From Sphaerodactylus townsendi (lineage: Eukaryota): a stretch of DNA of 64,000 nt. How positions within the stretch are numbered: the stretch's first letter is position 1; each line of letters opens with the position of its first letter. Under the pieces are notes generated by a model. The model did not search any database and was not told the DNA's origin. It saw only the letters and a list, made by a program, of their open reading frames with translations. Both the position numbers and the translations under genes were made by a program. The stretch is taken from assembly GCF_021028975.2 (NCBI RefSeq), contig NC_059429.1:70990001-71054000 (forward strand). The letters are read 5' to 3'. Shown here piece by piece: positions 5,881 to 64,000 of the stretch.

Positions 5881-6870
5881 GAAAGTAATATACATTTATT
5901 CCTACTAATAGCTTAAAAGCCAAACAATATTATGTTACTATCACTACAAGGAGAACTTTTTTCTAATGGCGAGTTTCATGAAAAAATATTCTAAGAAGTT
6001 TTACTGATAATGCCTCTGTTCCACTTGTTACAAGGTTAGACTATTTAGAACCATACAAGTGGGATCAGTGTCCATGATTCTGAGTTCCTCAGCACAGTGT
6101 AACCAATGCTTCCAACATCAGGAAGGTGGCTGCAGAATGGTGAAAGGTTGAAGCCAGGATCCAAACAAGTTCACACAAGGACTATAATGTTCACACAATG
6201 CGCTATAATGCTTTACAACCCTGCCACCCCACCCCACGCATGTATACAAGCCTCTTTAGATCCAGGCCTCAACATCATACCTTGGAATTCTTTTGCCTCT
6301 TGCTCGCATGGAAAAGATGCCCCTACAACTGGATTTCAAAAAGTTGGTCCCAGAAAAAATCCCAACTCAAAATCACGTAATACCTTTTAGAGAAGGTATA
6401 TATATAAATATGCGATATAATAAAAGGCATTACATGGCTTTGAGTTTTACAGTTGGATTGTGTCTTCTGCATGGGAGAAGACACAGGATTTTATTTATGA
6501 CCCCTAGGATCTAGTTAGTTATTTCACGCTGAGATGTGCAGGCTTTTACAAAAACAATTAAGAGCTGCTTCAGTAAGGGGTGAGTCAGAACAAAGAAATA
6601 TCAGTGGGGAATGCTTAAGCTTTTTGCTGCAGCTGCTTCCCTTGTCCATCACTAACCCAGCAACATTTCTTCCAAACAAGAGTTTACTTTTACAAATAAT
6701 GCATCTAGAATCCTGTTGGAATGGGTGGAGGCAACTTGAATGCAGATATAGAAGGTGACAAAAAAAATTTTTTTAATTTCTCCCACTGTACTCCAGCTCT
6801 GACTCACCCATGTTAAATTATTTTCCTGTTTAAAAGGAAAACACACCACTAGGGTTCCATGATATACATT

Positions 6871-7021
6871 GGCCCCTTCCGCACATGCAGAATAATGCAC
6901 ATTCAATTCACTTTTACAATTGTTTGCAAGTGGATTTTGCTGTTCCGCACAGTAAAATTCAGCTGCAAAGTGCATTGAAAGTGGATTGAAAGTGCATTAT
7001 TCTGCATGTGCGAAAGGGGCC
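6871..7021. mobile_element. MITE (Harbinger-like); same family as 62647-62785
   Basis: ~30-bp TIRs GGCCCCTTCCGCACATGCAGAATAATGCAC. Confidence 0.8.
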
Positions 7022-7850
7022 AGAGACATTCAACATTAGAATACCATCACTTTCTGTGCACGGGAGCAGATGAATAATAAAAAAATTCTAAGTTTCCCCA
7101 CTGACTTTTTTTATCCAAGGCAAAAGGACTTTTTACCAATCAAAGTAAACATTGATTTTCTTGCCTTTCTTCCTCCGTGGTCTCCTAATACCTTTATTTC
7201 TCCTTTGTCTTATATCACTAGTTCTTCTCCCTCACCAGCAGCTTCTCTGTCAGCACTGTCGGAGAAACTAGCTCAGTTTCTCACTTGACTGAAGTTGATA
7301 GCCGCCTATCGGGAGGAAGAAAGAAGGTCTAGCCTCCTGAAACCTACTATGTCAACTCCCAATAGTCCTGAAATGCCCTACTTCTCAGTGCGTCTCTTGA
7401 GGCTGTAAGAAGAAATCTAAGGTATAACCAAATCATTCAGTCTGCCGGTCACACAGCAATAAGGGAGAAGGGTAGATTTCTCAAACTGTCAAATATAAAT
7501 TGGCTGTACTAATAGCAAAGAGTGTTTTTTATTATTAATGTAGAACCAGAGGCGAATGTCAATTCATTGTCTAGAACAGCGGCTTTCAAACTGCACTCCT
7601 AGCTTAATAGGGGTTCCTCAACAAGAACGGCAACAGCGGATAACCATCCCCAAAAGACAGCTTGCCTGTCATCAGCAATCTGTCTTACAAGGCATGGACA
7701 AGGTTGTACCATGGTTACATGGAATTAGGTCCAGACAGACCTTCCTTATTGAAGGTGCCCTAGAATTCTGAACACTGGACAGAGATTCCATGGCAGACAA
7801 ATGGATAGAAAACCAGAGATCTACTGCTCTAGAATCAAACTGTGTGATCA

Positions 7851-17389: not shown

Positions 17390-19850
17390 TATTAATGTCA
17401 AGGATTTCAGTTGTTGGCATAACAAGCTATCTATTGAACTTATATAATACAAAAGAAAAGAGCAAACAGTTCCTCCTCAGTATCTGCTTCCAGCTTCCTT
17501 CTAAACCCCCCGCCCCTGTCTTTCTACTTTCCTGTTTTATTTTGTTACTCCTCTCCTGTTCCAGCACTTAAATCAAGACTATATTGCTCCTTTTGAAGTT
17601 TACACTTTTCTTCTTAGTAGTATTAGCAACAACATTAAACTATAAACTGTTAACATTCTCTATGAACTTGCTGTCTTGATGTGGTGAGTAGACTGTCAGT
17701 TACCCATAATAGCAGGGATGATTCTGCCCTAAGGAAAAAGTCGTCTTTATAACAGTGCTGATTTCGAAATCACTCTGCCTCTTGAAGTACCGGTAATTCT
17801 CTCTGTGTTTGAAGGCAGAGGGCAGGATTTGCTGGGTGTAGGCTACACTTGGGTCTGATTCAGACATTGGTGTGTCAGTTCTGGTCTGGTGATTCATGGA
17901 CGAGCTTTGCACTGTCTTGAGTGCTCCATTTCTGGAGCTTTTGTTGGTGGCGTATCTGAACATTCTTCTAATCCTAATGCAAGCTATAAAAGGCTTCTAT
18001 TTCTCCTGCGTGTTACAGTACTGGTTTGCACAAGGTATGTTTGACTCTGTTTCAAAACTGCTGCATGATCAGACAGTTCCTTTTGTCATCAAGTTTTATT
18101 CTCATTTGTGACCCAGTACTGAGCTCTAGCAATGCCTGAACTCCATTATGTTATCATAATGTCGCTTATATGCAGCTTTTACCTTCTCAGCTGTGGCACA
18201 CACTTTTCCAAATTAGGCCATTGAGGGTACAAAGTTGTCTCCAAGGAGTGGAGTTCATAGTTGTTGACCCAAACTGTGCTGGACTATATCACAATAGATT
18301 AATAAAGTCAAAAAGGGATCCTCTTGTTTTAAAAACTGTTTTTGTACAGCTCTGTCTGCCTTTCCATTGGACTGTGGGGAAGTGGGGGCTAGCTGTAACA
18401 TGTTTGAAATAGTTGGGATTGATATGGTCCTAGCTGTGCTGCTGACAGCATAAGGTACAACATTTTTCTTTAACTTTATTTTTATTGGAGTGATCTGCAA
18501 AGTTCCCACCTCATGGTGGGGTCCTACAGGGAGTTAATCTAGACAATGTATCAAGCCCATTGCAACAGCAGTGTCCAAGCTCAATAGATTTCTAGATGGA
18601 GCTCAAAGCACATAGATCTAAAAACTGTAACCCTCCCCTTTGTGTTGAGTTTGAGTCTGGAAATATCCTACCTATACCATTCAGACTGTCTTTCCATGGA
18701 CTGGAAAATACTCAGGATGTTTGATGGAGATGAGGAGGGCTTATAGACCAGGGGTCGGCAACCTTCACCACCCAAAGAGCCATTTGGACCTGTTTTCCAC
18801 CTCCCCGAAGATCTACTGAGCCAGAGAGGCGGCTTCACATGAAGCTGCCTCCAGTTCAGCCCCTCCACTCACCTTTCCTTCCAGCGCTGGGAGGTGAAGG
18901 CGCCAGGCAGGGAAACCCCCTCTGCCCGACGGAGCAGGCAGCCACCTGCTCCGTGGGGCAGAGGGGCAATGGCGGCTGTGGCCTGCCCAGTGCCGCCACC
19001 TCTCTCGCTGTGGGGGGCAGTGGCACCGGGCAGGGAAACCCCTTCTGCCCGATGGAGCAGGCAGCTACTTGCTCCGTGGGGCAGAGGGAGGATGGTGGCG
19101 GCAGGGATGGCAGAGGGGGGAATAGCGGCTGCTCTGGAGGGACACGCCCACATGCCCTCCAACCTCCAGGGGTCGGAGGGCAGCATGGGCATGTCCCTCC
19201 AGCCCTCCAGAGCAGGGCTGGAAGGAGAGGTGATTGGAGGGGATGCGAAAAGCTGCGCCTTCACGCATGGAGCTGGCTCCAGTTCGGTCCCTCCACTCAC
19301 CTTTCCTTCCAGCACTGCTCTGGAGGGCTGGAGAGACATGCCCATGCTACTCTCCAACCTCCAGGCCATGTGGAGCCGCAGTATAAGGCTGAAAGAGCCA
19401 CATGTGGCTCCGGAGCCATGGGTTGCCAACCCGTTATAGACTGAATCTGGAATTACATCCACATCCACCCAGTATCTCTTTTGAATTCTAGAGGAAGGTC
19501 ATAAATGTGTAATGATACTACCCTTGGGTCAGTAATGGTTTTGGAGCAGCTGACTATCTGAGAGCCTTGACCATCTGTTGCTCTGTTAATCATAGTGCAG
19601 GTGTAGAAGAAAAGGGTCCAAACAATGCAGCAAAGTGGTGACTGAAGATTCAGATCTCTGATACCATACCTTATTAATATCAAGGGATGGAGTTGTTGGG
19701 ATAACAAACTATTTATTGGACTAATATAATACAAAAGAAGAGATCAAACAGTTCTCTGTTTGCAGACTCCTTCTAGCTCCCCCAGACTCTCTCTAGCTTC
19801 CTGTTTCCTTCTGTTGCTGCTCCCCTGTTCCCTCCTTAATTAATATTGCA
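17390..19850 (-). mobile_element. old, internally deleted Gypsy/Ty3 LTR retrotransposon
   Basis: Diverged direct repeats (~17390-17590 and ~19672-19850); tRNA-Met-type PBS TGGTATCAGAG (minus, 19656-19666); pol remnants PIKIKLKKNVVPYAV and integrase PQSNGKADRAVQ. Confidence 0.75.
18749..19433. mobile_element. non-autonomous hAT element nested in the Gypsy remnant
   Basis: TIR CAGGGGTCGGCAACC / GGTTGCCAACCCG; 8-bp TSD TTATAGAC (18741-18748, 19434-19441); GC-rich internal repeats. Confidence 0.88.
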
Positions 19851-22542: not shown

Positions 22543-23877
22543 GTAAGTTGCGGGAGCCGCTGCTTTCCCCCAGGCGAATTTTTCCTGGCGGATTTCTGAC
22601 CAAATGGCTAAACTTGGCCCTTTTTGCATCACATTGTCACGGCGCCCTCTTCCGTTGCTCCTTACTAGGTTCTTAAATCAATATTAGCGGTTTCTTATTG
22701 TAGGAAAGGAGGAGGATTTATCCTTCGCTCGCCTAAAAAGTACAAAGAGGCACGCATTTGCCGAGATTTACCAGTTGGTAACCTTTCTGTTAGGGCTTGT
22801 TTGCCATTGACAGCTGCATTTTAGAGTGATATCTCTCTCTACAGCAAACGTAGTATAATAGTAACTACAACGCTGGTTTGGGGTACAGGAAAGCCAGGTT
22901 GAGAACTGCACTCTGCTGTCATTTAAGTTCAGATTTGTCACGGTGTATAATAAATGCTACCATCTGATTTCTTAGCTCACTTTCTCTCTGGCATGAGTTT
23001 ACTTTATGGGGATTTACTGATTAGAATGATGTGTTGGTGAAGTGTTGGATGTGGTTAGTAGGAAAGACAGATCACTTCTGTCCTGATAATGAAATTAGAA
23101 TGTGTTTGAACTGTCTTCAAAAAATGCATACATTTGTAGTAGTTCGTTTATTCAGCTATAAGGAAATAGGAATTATGGGAAGAATGAAATTGGACTTGGA
23201 GAACAGTAATTAGTGGTAACCTGAACAAACGCTGTTATACTTTTTCAGTAGTTTCGAAACATTCATTTTCTGGGTTCGTAGAGATATGGGAAGGAATTTT
23301 TTAATTTTTTTTCTCACGCAGAAAACTTGCCTTTGTGAAATGTTCAGTGTTTCATAAAATTAATAGAAATGATTAATGTTGTTGCCAGTACAAATTTAGA
23401 CAAGCTTACACGCTTTTCCACAAACAGTTGACACTAAATTTGTATATTAATCAGTCATTTTTTGGACCTTCGGTATAATGGAATGCTCTACGGGGGTCTT
23501 AGTACCTACCTAGAAGAACTAGTTAGATACGAAGACCCCTGCAGAGCATTCTACAAAGAAGATTCGAGAAATGGCAGATTAATATACACATTTACTGTAA
23601 TCTTTTTGTGGAAAAGAGTATAGTAGTTTCAGAGTTGTGATTTTTTTGGAGGTGACTATTTCTACAGGAGTGAGTGTGAGAAAGTTCATACATGTTTTGT
23701 TAAGTTTGTAATGGCAGGGGGGACAAATAACTAAAATACAGAAATAATGGTCTGTCTTTTCTATCATAAATGGGAAAATTCTGCCCTCCTGCTTTGACAA
23801 AACAGGGTATAGTTAAACTGTTAGCTTTTGTCTCTCACAAATAAAAAGGACTCAACTTGTGATTGTTTTTCTTTCAG

Positions 23878-25785: not shown

Positions 25786-26791
25786 TCAGGATATTATGTG
25801 TGATTCTCGCTTCTTTCACTTTATCTCACTTTATCTCCTTGTGAGGTAGGCTGTGCCAAGTAGGTAACTAGCCAAAGGTTATCTACCAAGCTTCTTGGTG
25901 GAGTGGTAGTCTGAGTGTGTCAATCTAATCACAGTTCTGCTCTGAAGTATGTTCATGCTTCCTACATGCTGAGATATAACACAGCTACATGTCTGGGCAG
26001 TAGCTGTTCTTTCTGCTTGTATTTGTTCATTTTCATCCTTAATGCTTTGTTTGGCAAGCATGCAAACATGAACAGGTCTTTTTCCCAGAGATGGAGGGAA
26101 TCTCTGAGTTCTTCTTTTAAGTATTCTTTAAAGAAATAATTGCTTTCTATTATAATTTGGAACAGATTCGATTGACATTAAGTCAGGGTGATCTTAAAAC
26201 GCAATACAAGTTGGGTTTTAAACTCAGTAGTGTTCATTCTATAGATCATAGAGAATTGCATTCACATTTACCCTCAACCAAAAGAGCCATATCCACTCTC
26301 ATCCCTGGCATGAGACTTACATCTCAAGGAGGCTTGTGGCTTACCTGTTGTTCTAGCAGTGGCTGTTTCAAAGTGAAAACCACTTGCCTACCACAAAGCC
26401 CTTGCCCTCACGTTGAGGAACAGAAGAGCCACAAATGGCTCCTGAGCCACTGAGTGAATATCACTCTTAACTCTTAACTAAATAGTCATGCTTTTGAGAT
26501 GGACATGAACACTTGTTTCAATTATTTTCTAATTTATTTTGAATTGTTTATCAAGCAATGGTGCATGTATATATTATATAGATAAGATTTTAATAGCATC
26601 ATTTTTTCCACCATGATATAGGTTTGGTGCTATGTTCACACTGTTCCTTTTTAGATCAGTGCAGCATAGGTAGTCAGTTCTTTGATTGCTGGAGGCGAGT
26701 CATTTCACATGTAGGTGAAATCAGATAAGGTTCATGAGATGAGGTTCATATCCCTTCTAAGTATCCACTGAAGTCAGCAAATCCTTTAAGG

Positions 26792-26929
26792 CAGGGGTCT
26801 TCAAACTATGGCCCTCCAGATGTTCATGGACTGCAATTCCCATCAGCCCCTGCCAGCATGGCCAAGTGGTAGGGCTCATGGGAATTGTAGTCTATGAACA
26901 TCTGGAGGGCCATAGTTTGAAGACCCCTG
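26792..26929. mobile_element. palindromic hAT MITE (138 bp)
   Basis: Long TIRs CAGGGGTCTTCAAACTATGGCCCTCCAGATGTTCAT...; perfect 8-bp TSD CTTTAAGG. Confidence 0.92.
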
Positions 26930-27224
26930 CTTTAAGGCCTTGAGATGCAATGATTAAACCCAAGGGACTGCAGATTGTCCCAGGAACCTGTTTCGTAGAA
27001 GCAAGTTCATCATCTATTGAGCTTGCACCTGCTTCAAAAATACACCCATCTGATCCTTCTGGGCATTGTCTGAATACAGAGTATGCAAAAAGCATACCCT
27101 TGGACCAGAAGCCTGACAAATCTTTGAATTCTTGTTTTTAATCTATCGTCATGAAATCAGAAGTTAATGATCATAAGATGCATTCCATGTTGACTTGGAT
27201 AGTCCTTGTTTTTTTCTGCTGCAG

Positions 27225-29918: not shown

Positions 29919-32631
29919 GTAATTAAAAATAGTTATTTTTAAAAGTTTCTGAGTAATCAACAGGGATCACTCTAGAGCTTGTATACCATCAAAATTCCTA
30001 TGAATGAATTGTGGTAAATAAATGGTCTTGATCTAATGCTCAGGGAACATTGAGCTATGTCAGCAGGAGTTTTATCATTCACTTTGGTATTGGGAACAAC
30101 TTGTAATACCCTGGCGTTATGCATATGAAACTATCCATTTGCTGTTGAAGTGAATACACTTGATCTGCAACCATTTTGTGTATGCATTCACTTAGTACTT
30201 AGAGGTCAATTATGCATAAGGTATCTACTGCACGATGGGGACAAATGTCTGTCTTTATGCAGCAGGGTATTTCCTCAAACTCTGTTCTCACTTTCTAGTC
30301 TCCCTGCCAGTTCACATGTTGCACAAATGTAATTTTTCTTTGCCACCAGAACACGGAGATTTTCCACTAAAAAGCTTTGCCCCGGATCTCTTCTCTTCAC
30401 CCTTGGCCAGCCTACCTGGCTCCATCCTTTCCACTCATTGCATTGTCATCCATGTCTTTACCCTTGCCCCATTGTTGCTGGCTCCTTCCTGCTTCACTAG
30501 TGCTCATTTCAATATGTCAGTGCATTGATAAACAAAGTTGACTTTTGCAAGGAATAGCACAAGCAGGGTTTGTTTCTGACTCCGGTACCCCTCTCCCGCT
30601 CTGCTTCTGTCCTCCCTAATGATCAGGAGGACTTTTAAAAACTTTTTTCCAGACAAGCCTCTTTTTAGAAACAAGCCCTCTCTCCCACTGCAGCAGCGAG
30701 AGAGAGTCTGTGGAAGGGAAGGGGAGTATTGGAACTACTGAGGGTTATGTGATCTGTGCCTTTAAGAAGGGCAGAGTTCAGAGAACCCAGAAACAGAGGC
30801 CTGTTGAGACTAGCTGCAGGAGAGGCCTGGGCTGCTTCCTCATGTGTAAACAGAAACATGAGGAGACCACACTTCAGCCCCACCATGTAGCTAAAAGGCC
30901 CAAGGTAAGTGTTCCATGAGTAATGGGACAATGGATGTGTGTTTCCACCTTGACTTGTCCCTCCACAGAAGTTATAACTACCAGTAGTTATAGTACTCTT
31001 ATTCTGCATGAATCTATATTCTGATGTTGCTGTTAACTGAAAATTGTGCTTGTACTGTTTTGGAGCAGGCACAAGTGGGGATTTATTTATAAGTATTTTT
31101 ATCCTGCCTTATACCAATATCTCTAGGAGGCATACATATGTTAAAAACAATTTAACCCCTCCCTAAATATAACAATTAAAACAACCATTAAAATAGCCTT
31201 AAAATAACCCCAATCCCCACGTTCACCCCATAGACAAACAGCTGTAGAGATGGGGTTTCAGAGTGGCTTACCAAATGCCTGGGCAAAAAATGCCTGCCAT
31301 GAAGATTTTCAAAAAGTAAGGTTTTCTATTATTAAGGTTAATCGCATGGTGAATCGCTTGAGGGAGACTATTTTAGAGGCTTTTTGCAATTCCCAGTTCC
31401 CAAGCCTGTTGTGAAGAATGATTCTCATCTAGAGTTCCACTCTGAAAGCCATTTGATTAACATTGGAGGACTAGTAACATGAAAGCTATTACCAGCAATG
31501 CCAGCAGCAACAATCAAGCAATCATTTTTTACTTGCTGAGGTCAAATGACTAAGAATAAACTGAACTTCCAACAAAACAGTGTGTTGCCAGTCTTATGGA
31601 CCAGCATTTGCTTTGGAGGGTTTTACCTTCCACATGAATTTCAGCTTTCTTTGATGGACACTATGAAGAGCTGTGAAGTCTTCTAGATCAAGAACTGTTT
31701 GAGAAACATGCCTTTTATCTTTTCAGTGTGTAAGTTCTTCCCTTTTTTGGTGGCTGCTCTGGTCACTCTGATGCATGGAACATGAACTTCAATGCCTGAT
31801 TTTTATAACATGTTGTACATGGTGCTGTCTTTGAAAAGTATCGAGAAGTATAATTGGTGTACTATGTAGCAGTCTATGTTATTTGAGGAGGGCTACATAG
31901 ATAATATTACACCTGTTTTGTAATTTTTGTGCTGGTTGCCTATTGGTTTCTGATACAAGATGCTGATGGTTGCCTTAAAGTCCTTCACAACCTATGGCCC
32001 ATGCACTTGAAGGGCTTTTTTTCCTGGTGTGATCTGGTGCAGCAGGTTTGTTTAGCACATCAATTTTTAAAATTAATCTTTCAACCCTCAAGTATATATT
32101 CTGCAGCTGCCCATTAGTGGGCTTTTTTCTGGTTGCTCGTGTAATGAAATAGCCTTTTGAAGCAAGTTTGAAGGTCTATATCTCTCTTACAGTTTCAGAT
32201 GGCTTGAGGTGCCAAAGGGAGGGTCCAAATCTGCTCTTGGGAGAGGTGCGCTGCCACACTGTCAGATTCACTTTCCCCAGGGAACTTACCCAGGGCAATC
32301 CCACTGACATGTGGGCACCACCACTCGCCCCACTGTGCATGGTGCTGGATGCCACACCAGCATCCAGGGGCCCTTCCACCACTAGCGTAGCAGGGGTGGG
32401 CCGGGGGCATGGACTTAAGTTTGGACTTAAGTCACCCTTTTGGATTGTGTAAATCCATTGCAGCTCATTGAGACTTCTCAGCAGTGGGAAGACTTTTACA
32501 CTTTGCGAGCCTTGTCATGCAACTAGGAAGTCTCTGTAGGACTAGCGGGTCAGTACTGCATGCAGCCTGCCATTTTGATGGGGCTGCCTGACTCTTTTAA
32601 AATCCCATTTTACAAGACAGTTGCTCTCCAA

Positions 32632-33803
32632 ACAGTGCCCTGTCGATTAATTATAACAAATCCAAAGTGCTGATCTTTTCGAATTCAAAAAAACTCAGCA
32701 CGTGGAAAATAAACGGTACATTGATTGAACAGGTCCATTCATACAGATATTTAGGAATCACCTTCCATCATTCCTTAACCTGGACCTCTCATATCCACCA
32801 GACTCTCAATACAAGTAAAATCAAAGTGTTGGCAATATCCAGATTTTTTCACACCAGAGGCGGTCAATTTTTTCCTGCCGCAATGGAAGTTTTTCAGTTA
32901 AAACTACTGCCACAATTACTTTACGGAGCTCCAATCTGGGGAGCAAAAACCGCTGAGAAATTAGAGAGTGTTCAATCTTTGTTTCTTCGTTGTTTATTGG
33001 GTCTTCCAAACTCAGTCACGTATCAAGTTCTTTGTTTAGAAACCGGAGCCAAGACAATTTTTTCCCGGGTTTGGCTCTCTTTGTTTAAATACTGGCTTCG
33101 CCTTCATTATAGAGCCCTCCCGGGCAGTCTCACATATTTTCTGTTAGCGACCACTTCCACTCCACCTGGCACACCAAAATTATCAAGCAAATAAACAACA
33201 TAGGTGTATCTTTTGACCAACTCCTACTGATGGACGAAAGACAGGCTTTCGGAGTTTTGAAACAACGTACTCTTGACATTGAAGGGCAGCTTCTCACAGC
33301 TGGAGCCTGCAGAACTTGTTCTCCCACATTTTATGGCATTTCACCACCATTGCCGGGTTTTATGGCTAAATATATGAGTAATTTAATCAATCCACATCTC
33401 CGCAGATATTTTATGCTTGCTCGGCTAAATGTGTTACCGACTGCCCAAACAAGAGGCAGATATCATGGCATCCCACAGGAGAACAGGACTTGTTCCTGTG
33501 CAGCGGGCCTACCCGAAACAACTGAACACGTGCTCCTTCATTGCAAAGATTTGGCAGTCTATCGGTTGCTTTTTCTCGAGGCCATCTTGAAGAAATTTTC
33601 AGTGAGATCAGACAAGGAAATAGTTTCACACCTGCTTAGTGACCATCATCCCCACACTACTGAATCAGTTGCCAGGTTTTTAACAAAGGCACTTGGATCA
33701 AGAGTGAAACCTTTGTGTAAATTTTAGTCAATTGGTTTTAACATAATCTGTATTTTACCACTCTTTATATGCCATTAAAGGTTTTGTATTTGTATTTGTT
33801 GTT
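32632..33803 (+). mobile_element. 5'-truncated non-LTR retrotransposon (RTEX/RTE-like) with 160-bp TSD
   Basis: RT thumb YRYLGITF, LLYGAPIWG and C-terminal C-x-C...ETTEHVLLHC knuckle; one frameshift near 33143; (TTGTAT)n tail; identical flanks 32472-32631 and 33804-33963. Confidence 0.9.
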
Positions 33804-34215
33804 GACTTCTCAGCAGTGGGAAGACTTTTACACTTTGCGAGCCTTGTCATGCAACTAGGAAGTCTCTGTAGGACTAGCGGGTCAGTACTGCATGCAGCCT
33901 GCCATTTTGATGGGGCTGCCTGACTCTTTTAAAATCCCATTTTACAAGACAGTTGCTCTCCAAGTTTCTTTAAAGGCAGTGATCTCTTTTTGTCAGGTGT
34001 TTAATTTTGTTGTTTTTGGAATTATGCTAATTTTATTGGGGTTCCAGTTATCTGGTAGAAGGATGAGTTTATGAATGTTTTAAATAGACCAAAAATTAAT
34101 TTTTATTTACCTTGAAACAGGACTATACTTCTTTGAATTTATGTCTAGAATGTATGCTTCATTTCCTATATTTTTTTCCCAAAAAATAATTTAATTGATT
34201 ATCTTTCTTCTTTAG

Positions 34216-34360
34216 GGTACTTTCGGAATCAGGAAGTTTTCTTATAGTTCTTTATTCTATGATACATAGAGATCCAGAGTTTTATGAATGCCTTCCTTGT
34301 GGACTTACTGAATTTGGTTTCCAACTACTTACAAGCAAGGAAACATTACATCTATTCAAA
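34216..34360 (+). CDS. STIL: STIL exon 9
   Basis: 145 bp AG/GT; [48 protein letters not shown]. Confidence 0.95.
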
Positions 34361-34592: not shown

Positions 34593-35796
34593 GAGCTTTT
34601 TTTGACTACTGTGATCTCAACAAACTAAAACTAAACAGTGAGAAGTCAAAAATAATCGTATTTTCCAAAAACTGGCGTCCTCTTTCCTGGAAAATCAGCA
34701 ATATTGAGATCAAGCAGGTACAATCTTTTAAATATTTAGGGATCACTTTTCAATACAATTTAAAATGGTCCCTTCATAGATCCTGCTTAATCTCATCAAC
34801 CAGACGTACCATGTCTGGCATAATCCAATTTTACTACGGAAAAGGAAACCAATCAGTAAAAGCCGTATTAAAAATTTTCCAAGCAAAGTTGTTGCCTAAA
34901 ATCCTCTACGGCATCCCAATTTGGATAAGCGATTTCCAACGTGATGTTGAACAAATCCAAGCATATTTTCTGAGAAGGATTTTGGGAGTCCCGAATAGTG
35001 TTACCTATCCAACTTTATGTCTCGAAGTTGGCCTCTCATATGTGGAAACAGAAGCTTGGATTGCCACCATAAAGTATTGGCTCAAAATACATTTTAGATC
35101 ACTTTCAGGTGATATAAACTCAAACCTTTTTAAAGACAATTTTCAATTCTATTGGTTCAAAGTCATTGAGAACAAAATCAGAACCATAGGATTTGATTTG
35201 GACAATGTCGGGACTGATAGTGAACTGCATATTTTCAATCAGGATCCGTGAAAGACTGAGGGATCTGGAACATCATTGTTTCTATCCAACAAAGGCGGCT
35301 GTATGCTCTCCCCGCTCCCTCGGAATACAACCAAGTTACAGAGCAAGAGCTAAATATCTCTCATCTCTGTTATCCATCAACCAACGTCGTGCATTCATGC
35401 TAGCACGCCTCAATATTTTCCCATCAGCAGAAACCTCAGGGAGATACCTCCAGATCCCTAAACATCAGAGACTATGCCGTTGCGGATGTGGATCTATAGA
35501 AACCATAACCCATATTCTTCTGGAATGCTGTCTTCACAGTAACCTGCGCGTGATTTTAATTCACCCTCTGCTGCTTCCAAGACTTGAGCACTCCAAGTTC
35601 CAGGCCACTCGCTTTCTGCTAAGTGACTGTAATCCATCGATCACCTTGGCAGTGGCTAAATTCTTGGAAAGCATTTTAAATACCCATATTTAAATGTTTT
35701 AAAAGTTTTCTCCTTTAAATGTTTTAAAAGTTTTCTCTTTTCTCTTTTAAATGGAAATAATTTGTATGCCATTAAAGGTTAAAATGAAATGAAATG
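34593..35796 (+). mobile_element. 5'-truncated non-LTR retrotransposon (RTEX/RTE-like) with 13-bp TSD
   Basis: FKYLGITF, ILYGIPIW, CRCGCGSIETITHILLEC; frameshift near 35240; (AAATG)n tail; TSD AACTACTAAGTCA at 34580-34592 and 35797-35809. Confidence 0.9.
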
Positions 35797-36175: not shown

Positions 36176-37211
36176 TCTATATAAACGTGAAATACCACTG
36201 ACTGACTCACTGACTCATCAAAAGAACTAAAAAACCACAGAACCTACAAAGTTGAAATTTGGCCCACTGGCTCATTATGTGGTTTAGGTGCTCACTATGA
36301 AAGGATTTTTCAAAATATTCAGTTTTACTCGAGTTATTACACATTTACTGTTTTCACTGCTCATCTCTGCCCATCTGCATGAACATTCTAAGGGCAAACC
36401 CACCACTCAGTCCACAGACATGCTGCATGAACATTCTAAGGGTGACAGTTCAACACCACCAGCTTCATGTCCTTCACCAACTGCACTCTACCACCACCCT
36501 CCACAACACATGTGAACCTATTTGAAAACAAACCCATCAGTCCACAGACAGACTGTGAGGAAATATGCTGCATGTCACCCCAAAGTTAAAAGACAGGCTG
36601 CAAAAAAGTACTCCTCCACCTGCCCTCACATTAACAACACTGCTACAGCCAAATACTATTAAAATACATTACAAACCACACTATCACCTTGGACTACTAA
36701 ACATTTGTCGGGTTTTGCATATGGACATCAGATTGCTTACTGTGGAGACAAGTTTATTGCTCTCGGCCTCTGATCGTCCTGTGCTGTGTCGTGCTCTGAA
36801 GTCTCCAGGAATGTGCTGCAGTGGCAGTACAGTCCAGCTCCCTGCCCTTCAACCCTACCCTGAACCTCTTCACAGCCTTCTCACTCATCAGCATCCAATG
36901 GCAGAACACTTCCGAAAATAAAACGGCTGCTTCCAAATGACGTCTTTTGGAGCCCACCAGGTGAAAGAGAGCAATTTCCTGCCAACATACAAAGTGCACA
37001 GACAGGTGTACTGAATGCTGAATGTCACCCTGAAATTCATAGAGAGGCTGTGATGAAGTATGCTGAATGTCATCCCGAGGCTAACAGACAGGCTGTGAAA
37101 AAGTATTCCTTGACCAACCCTCACGTTAACCAGACCACTACAGCCAATTACAATCAAAACAGATTACAAACATACTACAAACTACGTAGCGAAGCACAGG
37201 CATCCTGCTAG
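36176..37211 (+). mobile_element. internally deleted Helitron (rolling-circle transposon)
   Basis: A|TC 5' end, CTAG|T 3' end, no TSD; internal RepHel remnant GMCCSG..VQLP..PEPL..HFRK*NGCFQMTSFGA..FLPTYKVHRQVY (~36800-37012). Confidence 0.85.
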
Positions 37212-55915: not shown

Positions 55916-57701
55916 AGACTCTCTTTTCCCCTCTGGGGAAAGATCAAGGCTGACCCATCCCTGGCACCCCTCTCCCCTGCTCTTCCTCATATTTTGATAC
56001 CTGGGGGAGACGGGTGGGCTTGGAAACATTAAGCAACCCCGCACCGATGTCTAACTCCTTATAAAGAAATCCTGAACTCTGCCTTTACTAAAGAAAGGGT
56101 TTGGGCCCGATCTAGGCAAAGCTTCGGAACTGCTCCGGAGTTACATCCCATCCACCCAAACCTGTACTTCGACTTGGAAACAATTCCCATTCATTTCAAT
56201 TTACTGCTACAGCAATTCTGTATAGATGCAATTGGGATCTTAATCGTATACTCGCGTTGCTTTCATTTGTTTCACAGTAAGAGCTTTTCATGCGCGCGCA
56301 ACAAAGCATTACAATTCAGAGAGATTCCCCCCCCCCCACACACACACACACTACTTAGGGGCTGAGGTTGTAAATTTAAAAGAAGCAATATCGGGACCTT
56401 TCCAAGTTCTTCTGGACGTCCTGCGTCGGGGGCCGTTGCTTGAGCTTAGAACAAAGCGGATCGTGGCTGGGGAGAGTGAACCCCAAAGTTGTGGGAGTGG
56501 GCGCTGTATGGGATATCGCGCAAAAGGGACTGGGGGTTCCTGACTCCCGTGCTGTAGTTAACATAGAAAGAGGGCATCAGGCCTACACAGCTGGTGTCAG
56601 TGGCCAAATCCCCACTTATCCGAAATAGTAATAGTCACAAGAGGGCAGTTCTCTAAGTACCTCCACGTAGAACAGTTCATTACATAGTCCGGCGACCTCT
56701 ACAGAACGGGCATTTGTTGCAGGGGGTAGATGCTGCCCAGGTATGTCCAAATCAGGAGTCAAAAGTAAGCAGTCCTGAGGAAATCCGCTTGGAAGTCAGG
56801 TGTTCCTAGGATTGCACCCCCTAAAAGCGTCGGGGGCTGCAAATGTCATCAATACCGTTGATTAAGACTAACTGCAAACTGCCGCGCTTGTCCTAAAAAG
56901 CCTTGTCTGCCTTTCTTCAGCGAACGACTCGAATGCAGGACTGTTGTTTTAGCTAGAAAGCGTTCTGGAGCAGGACGCTGCAGGCACGGAAATAAACAGA
57001 AGGCGGCGGCGGGCGGGGGGTAGAAAGATTTTCAGTGATTGATGGTTTTAAATCTGATGAGCTGCACTACACCGATGTGTTTGCTTTGCATTTTGTCGCA
57101 GCCTTCCTTGAGAATCTGTGTGTTTACAGGCAGATTTATACATCTTAGAAGTCGTCGGAAACGGTGAGCTGTCAAGCCGCAACAGGTCTGCCGAGGGGAA
57201 CAGACTGGAGTCATTTGTCTGTATTTGCGAGACCTGCAGGCTCAGTGCGGCGGTCCCTTACTGACTGTGTAGGCAGCAGCACCCTTCAATGCCGCCCAGT
57301 TGTTCCCTGATTTAGTTAAGCCAATACCGCAAGCAGCCCGCTAAGGACGAGTGCAAGAACAGAAGATGCGGAAGGGAGGCTGGAAATTAACTGTACCGAA
57401 CAATAAGAGAGAAGACGGATGATCAAGAGACAAAGGGAAAGCATATCTTGATCCGCTGCGGGACTGATAACAGGGACGGTGATCTTATCTTCCACAGCGT
57501 TTATGACAGTTTCATGAGATCTGTCCTTCTTCCGTTCAGTTTTTACAGAAGTACCCCCCACCCCACCCCCAGCATCCGCACGGCTGATGCAAATCTAGTT
57601 CAATTCGTGCGAAAATGCCAGTCTTGGAAGAGACGGGTAGATCATTCGTGGAGAAAGTTTGGGTGTATAGCTCTCCTTTCACTACAAAGGGGCTAAAATT
57701 T

Positions 57702-58254
57702 AAACCGGCTATTTTAGCTCTGCAATCCTAAAACGCATTTCCAAAATAAATTCTATTAATGGGCAGTTGGCCCGCTGTGAAGAACACCCAGGAAGAGGGC
57801 GCCCCCCGCCCGCCCGCCCGCCCGCCCGCCACCCCACCCCGCTCCCTCTAGAGAGGCCAGTGGTTCTCTCTCGGCGGTGGGGAGCAGGGTCGGAGGCCCT
57901 CGACGTGATCCATGCAGACTCTTCCACGGGATGTGCTGGAGACTCTGCAGTATGTGAATCGTTCAGTTGGAGATGGCACGTTGCGGATCAAGTGCTACAG
58001 CTCCAACTGAACGATTCACATACTGCAGCACATCCCGTGGAAGAGTCTGCATGGGTCACGTCGAGGGCCTCCGACCCTGCTTCCCACCGCCGAGAGAGAA
58101 CCACTGGCCTCTCTAGAGGGAGCGGGGTGGGGTGGCGGGCGGGCGGGCGGGGGGCGCCCTCTTCCTGGGTGTTCTTCACAGCGGGCCAACTGCCCATTAA
58201 CAGAATTTATTTTGGAAATGCGTTTTAGGATTGCAGAGCTAAAATAGTCGGTTT
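57702..58254. repeat. long near-perfect inverted repeat (arms ~270 and ~254 bp, 28-nt loop)
   Basis: 57702-57972 is the reverse complement of 58001-58254 apart from ~4 transitions, a ~10-nt indel and a different (GCCC)n copy number. Confidence 0.97.
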
Positions 58255-59519
58255 GAAGCATCCCTATAATAATAACGTCCACCTCGATTTTTATGTGACA
58301 CTATTTCAATACAAATATGCCGTCCGGATTATTAGGACTCGTCGCCTGTTCTTTTTCACACGTTCGCATCAAACTCCACCCACATGTTAATTCAGAGCAC
58401 AGTAATGGGACTTTAGGCCAGGAGTCCGAGGGAAAGCGCAAAAATACAAGCAGATTCAACACAAAGGCGGTTTAAAACCACCTTTCCTTAGAGTGGGATG
58501 GGCTACGATCCATTCGATACGCTTAAGGAAACAGAAGAAAACTGGCTCGAGGAAGAAGTCCATTGGCAGCGCTGGATTTATGCGCACGACAACCAAGCTA
58601 CAATTCAGGGCTTCACATCATGAGGGGTCTCTAAATACACATTTTTTTAAAAAAGAAAAATATGTGATGGAACTACTAAAGCCTCAGCGTGTCTTAATCC
58701 GGCCCCACGCCCCGTTCGTGGAAAAAAGGCTCTAAGATGATGGGCACATCCTCCATCTTGACGCGATAGAGCTCAGGTGGAAGGGGCTACCTGAGCAAAC
58801 GACCCGCCTTTGTCTGCTCCTGCCCCTCTTCCATTTATGAGCATCCCCTTGATTTCAGGAGAATATTAATCGGAAATCAATCTTAGGTCGGGGAGCCAAA
58901 TTTCCCATTCCTCCAGCGGGCCTAGATCTGACCTGCCTCAAACTAGGGGAAAGGTAGCGAGGTATCTCGCAGGACGTGCTCTGGAGCATATTGGCGAGGT
59001 TTTGGACGGGAACCTCCAGCTCCTTTCTGACTAGCCCCCTCTTGGATTTGCCGGATCCAGCTCGGCTTGTAAATCTTGTGCTCAACCTTCGTGTCTCCAG
59101 TGAAGAACGGTGTTTTTTTCGGGGGGGGGGGGGAGTAATAAATAATCAATATCAACGTTTGTGGTTTACTGCACTGACTGACCCAGGCAGGCCTCTCCTT
59201 TCCCCCGGTTGCTCTCCAGCGGCGGACTTTCCTTTCCTTTTGCAATTATTGTGGCTCATTAAATTTAATTAAAGAGCCGAGTTGGTCTTCCATATTTAAT
59301 TGTGAGTGTGTGTGAGTGGGGGTGGGTGGGACACACACAGGAGAGGATAAAAACCTCCAAGAGAGCTAAAAGAAGCGCTCGTTATTTAAATGTGGGCCGT
59401 CCTGGCGAATATTTCATTCCTCCCTTCGCTCTCCCCAGTCAGCCTTCTCTTGAAAGCACACACACAAACACACAAAGCCAGGAGGCCCGCATCCCAAATC
59501 CCCCCTCCCCGCATATCCC

Positions 59520-62646: not shown

Positions 62647-62785
62647 GGCCCCTTTGCACAGGCAGAATAATGCACTTCCAATGCACTTTGCAGCTGGATT
62701 TTACTGCGCGGAGCAGCAAAATCCACTTGCAAACAATTGTGAAACTGGATTGAAAGTGCATTATGCTGCATGTGCGGAAGGGGCC
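62647..62785. mobile_element. MITE (Harbinger-like), second copy
   Basis: Same TIRs and internal sequence as 6871-7021. Confidence 0.8.
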
Positions 62786-64000
62786 AAAAAAGGCAAATCT
62801 GTCAATTGAACCGGATTAAAATCGATTTAAATCCTAACGGATCACCCGGGTTATAGGGCGCTTGCTGTTGACTTCGGAACCTCTGGGCACAAAATATCCC
62901 ACAAAATTATCAGGGATAATACTGCGGACTCAGAGTCTTTCTTTGTCTCGTTTATAAACCACTCCGCATACAGTATGGACTTAAACGTGTTCAGCACATC
63001 TCTGTTCCCTTGAAATCCAGGTGTTCAGGGCTATCGCTTGATGATTAGATTTCCGCTGGAAAACAAGTGCCGCGGCCGCCGTAGAGAGCGGAGACCTGAG
63101 CTCGGCTTTCCCGGTTCCAAACTGTGGCCTTCAGGGCTCTCGTTGCGGCCCGGGGGGGTTTAGGGCGCGGCCTTCAGGTCCCTCACTGGAGAGTCGCCCC
63201 TTCGGGCCTTGGGCAACCGGTTGTTTCTCAGCACAGCAGAGCCGGGCGGCGGGACGGCGTTGATACCAGAGGCGTGAAATTAACCACCCGCCATTCAGGA
63301 GAGAAAAATCACTGGAAAGAATTATGCCGCATTAAGCGGTTTTTAAAAAGCAAATCTAACACACATTTCTTTATAACCCCTCGTCATTCGTTCCCCATAT
63401 AAATTTATTTCAGATGCCCGTGGTTGTTCTAAAATTAAAAACAACGAGAAACCCAATCTACTAGATTGAAATTTTTTTTGGGGGGGGGGAAGAGGGTTAA
63501 GGTTGCAGTCCTAAAGAGAATTGTGTGAGGGGTAAATGCGGTCGAGTTACTATAAACCCTGTTGTCTTTTACGGCACTTCCTCTCGAGTAAACGGGTTCA
63601 CGATTTGGCGGTGAACCCAGTCCTATGGATATTTACTGGAAAGGAAACCATCGAATTAATTACTCTTGAGTAAGCGCGCATAAGATTGCCGCCTTCAGTA
63701 GGTCAACCCAACCAACCCAGTGAATTCTGGACACGGAAAACGCCAGGGACGCTAGTCCGGGCCCAAATCCCTGCATTTCGCGGCACACTGCAGCCCATTT
63801 GGAACCGGCGCCATTCGTGCCGCGGGAGGACTCCGTCGAACGGGGCAGCTCGCAGCTTGAAACCCGAGGAACCGAAGTTAGGAACAGAATGAAGGGAGTG
63901 AAGGACTTTCGAAGAGCAATTTAGCTCGACCCAATAATCTAATTCCCCAACTGTGGAAAAAACCGGTCAGCTCCCCCGGTGCGGGGGGGGGGTGTGTGAC

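Follow-up and report, generated by a model that had tools for sequence, protein, structure and literature searches.

A 5'-truncated LINE lies in an intron of STIL, in the sense orientation, within the window (the whole 64-kb stretch of DNA that was analysed), and is bracketed by two copies of a 160-bp unit. The features located at and around the insertion are given below, with X1 to X5 denoting public runs, X5 being that of a relative, and TSD standing for target-site duplication.

32413..32591, no strand assigned: old dispersed host repeat, overlapped by the target (72–85% identity to other copies)
32472..32631, plus strand: upstream copy of the duplicated 160-bp target DNA (self-match of the window, two perfect genome matches, empty site in X5)
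32629..32631, plus strand: 3-nt microhomology between the end of the target and the element at the 5' junction (junction alignment)
32632..33803, plus strand: 5'-truncated copy, 1172 nt, of a young LINE of about 6.2 kb encoding an APE endonuclease and a reverse transcriptase (RT) (family comparison, translated frames)
33782..33803, plus strand: microsatellite tail, common to the family (two TTTGTA-type units, then TTG units)
33804..33963, plus strand: downstream copy of the duplicated 160-bp target DNA (contigs of X2, X3 and X4 start at its base 1 and enter the 3' flank)
34216..34360, plus strand: downstream STIL exon (Pfam STIL_N, E 1.6e-13; AG/GT ends)
34593..35796, plus strand: neighbouring insertion of a related LINE family (40% amino-acid identity, ordinary 13-bp TSD)

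The 5' end of the insert is found directly after the YADD motif, and the 1172 nt therefore hold only the end of the RT domain, a C-terminal Cys/His region, a stop at 33727 and a short 3' UTR. A single-base deletion near 33146 breaks the reading frame. The insert matches two other family copies at 99.7% identity in a comparison of 1153 nt; for a third, error-rich copy the identity is 97.2%. Pfam searches on the window's own element fragments gave sub-threshold matches only. The second 160-bp copy ends 252 nt ahead of the next STIL acceptor, so that the STIL exon is not duplicated; a first-pass annotation of this DNA had expected such a family to duplicate host sequence routinely, small exons or enhancers included, and at this locus no exon lies inside the duplicated 160 bp.

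Other elements were seen in the same window. The neighbouring LINE at 34593–35796 lies 630 nt downstream in the next STIL intron and has the AAAGGTT end motif in common with the present element, while its AAATG tail differs. Degenerate tandem units of 45–48 nt at 36375–37104 are possibly coding repeats inside a STIL exon. Self-complementary (MITE-like) elements are located at 57699–58257, 26786–26935, 19171–19359, 23407–23622, 6869–7022 and 62647–62787, the biggest of them measuring about 560 bp at 90%.

Self-comparison of the window showed 160 matches out of 160 between 32472–32631 and 33804–33963, neither side extending further, and no third copy of the unit was found in the 64 kb. This confirmed the structure of identical repeats around a 1172-nt 5'-truncated LINE from which the first-pass annotation had started. 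A genome search with the unit returned 25 matches, two of them at 100%, both within the window; the remaining 23 are partial, with 69–92% identity, and represent the old repeat. The duplication runs exactly from the tail to the 5' truncation point, without a separate short TSD. Three nucleotides at the 5' junction (32629–32631) and one at the tail junction can be assigned to the target as well as to the element, and the true duplication length is therefore 156–160 bp. The possibility that the 160 bp belong to the element, a concern raised earlier, was ruled out: they are absent from the other 176 copies examined and have only the two perfect genome matches. The 160 bp are host target DNA, and the repeat is most likely a TSD.

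With the 3' 391 bp of the element as query, 656 candidates were obtained in the genome, and the exact 39-nt 3' end occurs at 252 places. Of 40 scored copies, 34 are identical over the 391 bp, which bears out the earlier reading of a recent insertion and, together with the 252 exact 3' ends, marks the family as very young. Copies range from 28 nt to 6.2 kb in length (median 875). A full-length copy measures 6185 nt and has a 13-bp TSD; three further copies of 5.8–6.2 kb have TSDs of 14, 15 and 14 bp. In a 1063-aa frame of copy L170, Pfam domains Exo_endo_phos (E 6.8e-11) and RVT_1 (E 2.3e-38) were detected. With this ORF2, a common 3' end followed by a simple-repeat tail, variable 5' truncation and a median TSD of 14 bp, the family is an APE-type non-LTR retrotransposon inserted through target-primed reverse transcription (TPRT).

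A homolog search returned eight unnamed proteins of 26–35% identity. Classical members of the RTE clade (RTE-1, Bov-B) are described as 3.2–3.9 kb long with a rudimentary or absent ORF1 (PMC1291365, PMC3905857), whereas the full-length copy has 6185 nt and carries about 2.7 kb upstream of ORF2, with open pieces of 220–290 aa. This region speaks against a classical RTE and would suit a clade with an ORF1, for example RTEX, for which a substantial ORF1, in some members with an SGNH esterase, has been described (PMC3905857). ORF1 was seen in pieces only, the copies being frameshifted, and an esterase or other real domain was found in none of six partial, frameshifted fragments scanned from this region. 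The label ‘RTEX-like’ given earlier to the family is a plausible but tentative one.

A sister subfamily (L106, L242–L247, L249 and L254, e.g. G000:C8:92662681-92667950) has the 3' 3.7 kb in common with the family, a stretch that covers ORF2 in full together with the end of the ORF1 region, while its 5'/ORF1 region gave no BLASTN match to the 6.2-kb copy; judged from the sequences, ORF1 would seem to have been exchanged inside a young family. Two copies (L136, C4:118486508, and L231, C14:26532510) have a doubled 3' end, with a second short 3' piece carrying its own tail. In L161, L091 and L140, 60–230 nt of extra non-element sequence separate the TSD from the 5' end, perhaps as templated or chimeric insertions.

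The TSDs of the family were tabulated in 177 distinct copies, comprising the best 391-bp matches, the first 100 of the 252 exact 3'-end places in genome order and 57 copies from two tail-defined subsets. A TSD could be called in 137 of these. In 132 it measures 9–19 bp, with median and mode at 14 bp, and 108 lie between 12 and 15 bp (9 bp, six copies; 10 bp, four; 11 bp, four; 12 bp, 19; 13 bp, 25; 14 bp, 42; 15 bp, 22; 16 bp, one; 17 bp, three; 18 bp, two; 19 bp, four). Lengths of 27, 54, 61, 103 and 160 bp were found once each, the last being the window copy and the other four the following clean, exact flank duplications.

L035 (C3:58639730): 27 bp
L112 (C3:106037726): 54 bp
L170 (C1:169902672): 61 bp
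L229 (C12:47518422): 103 bp

By hand tally, 23 of 36 extra distinct long or sister-subfamily copies were called at 9–18 bp, without a long TSD among them. The window copy was left out of the rate estimates since it had been chosen for its long TSD, which gives 159 called copies. On this basis, TSDs above 20 bp occur in four of 159 copies (2.5%, CI 0.7–6.3%) and TSDs above 50 bp in three of 159 (about 2%). The long lengths are compatible with a flat spread between 20 and 200 bp (Kolmogorov–Smirnov p 0.13 and 0.39, n = 4–5).

The strict calling rule left 40 of the 177 copies without a call. Several of these have a short TSD by eye (L021, L085, L124, L135, L226), a further one contains an N gap and three are without a 5' end in the stretch searched. 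In an indel-tolerant BLAST search of the 40, L095 alone gave a long duplication at its 5' end. Around this 0.6-kb copy (L095/L172, G000:C2, near 54165478, minus strand), 2.0 kb of flank occur twice, the two stretches being 89% identical, with 66 gap openings, and running out in an ATG/ATA microsatellite. Either the TSD is of kb size and one of its copies was left unpolished, or the duplication was produced by the assembly; the case was omitted from the TSD counts. Duplications exceeding the downstream flank searched (about 1–2.5 kb) would escape the census. Apparent long TSDs at L094, L119, L143 and L216 were rejected as insertions into host tandem or simple repeats.

The flank of the window copy is present in five public runs, all as contigs, and the assembled sample is possibly among these runs. 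In X5, one contig covers 31808–32631 continuously; over these 824 nt it shows 17 differences and one gap, and after 32631 it continues in other sequence. It was read as the single-copy empty site; a search for this site had been proposed in the first-pass annotation, and the relative's contig crosses it without a break. Among the runs with the same sequence as the window, the 5'-flank contig stops at 32501 in X2 and X3, and an 818-nt contig in X2, X3 and X4 begins exactly at 32472 and runs into the 3' flank. In X1, a contig carries 26 foreign letters ahead of 32472. Such breaks are the pattern of a second path, putatively the element tail, that joins the unit at base 1. The tail-side junction is in this indirect way supported in four runs.

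The 5' junction (32631/32632) is crossed by no contig in four runs: the 23 pieces listed (there were 33 further) all enter the 3' flank, and the depth at 32600–32624 is that of one contig per run. This absence, and the contig breaks as well, would be expected from an assembly artefact at a heterozygous insertion, in which the true TSD would be short and the consensus would have merged the empty and the filled allele, repeating the 160 bp. The assembly is noisy and error-rich inside repeats (copies 89–98% identical, many gaps), the gap-rich 2.0-kb duplication at L095/L172 is a further point on this side, and microhomology would also promote a consensus switch. Assemblers of this type often prune short links into very deep repeats from their contigs, and the repeat containing the element has a thousands-fold depth; the lack of the 5' junction among the contigs is thus not proof of its absence, but the junction is a putative one.

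Against such an artefact, heterozygosity would be required in all three samples (S1, S2 and S3), in addition to an assembly error at a clean locus, because the flank contigs of X2 and X3 reach at least 30 nt into the unit and four runs join the whole unit to the 3' flank. The window element itself is clean (99.7%), and its junctions are as sharp as those in the 54-, 61- and 103-bp cases. Contig depth is not copy number and the runs are inconsistent with one another, but in X2 the observed depth of 101.9 compares with 100.9 expected for a doubled and 86.6 for a single unit, and in X1 a unit depth of 12.2 between flanks of 4 and 7.5 also fits a doubled unit; in X3 no model fits (28.3 versus 36–42). 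An artefact is accordingly considered rather unlikely, and we hold with good confidence that the 160-bp structure is real or probably real.

A pre-existing or independent 160-bp tandem duplication, with the LINE inserted at its junction, is very improbable: nothing specific speaks in its favour, the relative's site is single-copy, and the two copies are identical, end exactly at both ends of the element and leave no separate short TSD. Least probable of all is the proposal of the first-pass annotation that the family routinely places its second nick about 160 bp, or one nucleosome, from the first; R9 and Dualen-4b make long TSDs as a rule. The window copy is the only one in favour of this proposal; none of the 159 other called copies has a TSD of 140–200 bp (95% upper bound 2.3%) and the mode is at 14 bp, which rules out a nucleosome-length mode and refutes the routine mechanism, while a minor peak at 140–200 bp, under about 2% of the family, may exist. 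The tabulation of family TSDs that the annotation had itself suggested yielded 9–19 bp in 132 of 137 copies and no mode near 150–170 bp, and the family therefore makes ordinary TSDs. Of the original interpretation, the recent insertion and the origin of the repeat as target DNA, most likely a TSD, stand, and the distant, nucleosome-spaced second nick falls as a mechanism of the family.

The long TSD probably arose once, through an opening or an earlier break of the second strand 160 bases downstream from the first nick. The element endonuclease would have made its bottom-strand nick at 32471/32472; reverse transcription would have started on the tail and ended early, after about 1.15 kb of cDNA. 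The cDNA would then have been joined not at the usual top-strand cut, some 14 nt off, but to a remote 3' end of the top strand, with microhomology of 3 nt bridging the two. Enzymes of host repair or replication would likely have carried this out, and fill-in would have copied the 160 nt twice. About 2.5% of the insertions of the family may follow the same route, with scattered lengths. The context of the first nick, A before G, agrees with the family pattern, in which A is found at position −1 in 50% and T or G at position 0 in 89%. Microhomology of 3–5 nt was present in three of three measurable long TSDs, versus 16 of 98 short ones (Fisher p 0.006, a post hoc comparison with n = 3). It fits host end-joining, yet it also fits a consensus switch in the assembly. 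Since the family normally duplicates only about 14 bases, no new mechanism is likely to lie behind the long TSD here, which probably goes back to a rare accident of insertion of a kind described before. It is a by-product, without sign of function.

Long TSDs of this sporadic kind have been reported for other LINEs. For human L1 in HeLa cells, TSDs above 100 bp made up under 10% of events, and distant, unrelated DNA ends from replication or repair were proposed as second-strand primers (Servant et al. 2017, PMC5223499, citing Gilbert 2002/2005 and Symer 2002). For the L2-clade element ZfL2-2, whose background TSDs measured 20 bp or less, one of 25 insertions had a TSD of 1228 bp (Suzuki et al. 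2009, PMC2666801). A genomic survey of L1 and Alu described a TSD peak at 14–16 bp and 5' microhomology, and noted that extremely long TSDs accompanied 5'-truncated L1 in HeLa and that longer TSDs in vivo need study (Kojima 2010, PMC2912911). The present family resembles L1 as a short-TSD element with a minority of long ones, ZfL2-2 as a non-L1 APE-type LINE with a rare long TSD, and the L1/Alu survey, which collected TSDs of 5–30 bp only and so stopped at 30 bp, in its peak at about 14 bp and its 5' microhomology. The L1 cases come from cultured cells and the ZfL2-2 case from an assay in DT40 cells, whereas the insertions here are apparently inherited, in a reptile-type genome assembly, and belong to another LINE family with a microsatellite tail, counted as natural copies (4/159 above 20 bp). 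The span from tail to truncation point, the single-copy empty site and the short-TSD background probably place the locus in the class of sporadic large TSDs. The window case is an outlier; it belongs to a tail of about 2.5% whose lengths are spread out, as has been reported for L1 and ZfL2-2.

RTE-1 of Caenorhabditis elegans is a family that makes long TSDs as a rule. The rotifer element R9 has a TSD of 126 bp (as cited in PMC9977147), and in Chlamydomonas Dualen-4b over half of the copies have duplications above 50 bp, with a median of 900 bp (PMC9977147). Likeness to these three is confined to the duplication length of the window copy. Unlike in R9 and Dualen-4b, long TSDs are found in about 2.5% of the copies, with 3/159 above 50 bp, and have no fixed length. 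Set beside these families, the scanned ORF2 encodes one APE endonuclease plus RT. Elsewhere, tandem duplications of 1–10 kb have been treated as large TSDs from break-induced replication (bioRxiv 10.1101/2024.12.14.628481). The literature consulted on TSDs of RTEX and on large TSDs in the germline, including PMC5753468 and PMC7943196, gave nothing on the TSDs of the present family, which is not proof that none is in print.

A broader reading is that the 2–3% tail of long TSDs represents a second, host-driven completion pathway in the germline, in which microhomology links the cDNA to an end already present on the top strand, for example that of an Okazaki fragment. L1 has been linked to Okazaki fragments for first-strand cleavage or priming (PMC12809410, PMC12871754). 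Joining to such ends would let the lengths (27, 54, 61, 103 and 160 bp) spread up to about one nucleosome repeat. We regard this pathway as doubtful, and a limit on the long-TSD lengths set by Okazaki-fragment spacing as equally speculative. If the pathway were true, natural long TSDs would report, across the whole genome, on how TPRT deals with the second strand, a step still unsolved; they would have a ceiling near 200 bp and be biased by the direction of replication.

The single locus is of small import, being a rare known outcome in which no exon was duplicated. The useful product is the census, according to which about 2.5% of apparently inherited insertions have a TSD above 20 bp and about 2% one above 50 bp. 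The published genomic TSD surveys consulted stop, as described, at 30 bp (L1 and Alu, PMC2912911) or 49 bp (squamate Bov-B, PMC13295347), and the census goes beyond these lengths. If confirmed, it would provide, for a young non-L1 family, the natural rate at which LINEs create local duplications when not in cultured cells, and the long-TSD copies would form a test set for second-strand cutting.
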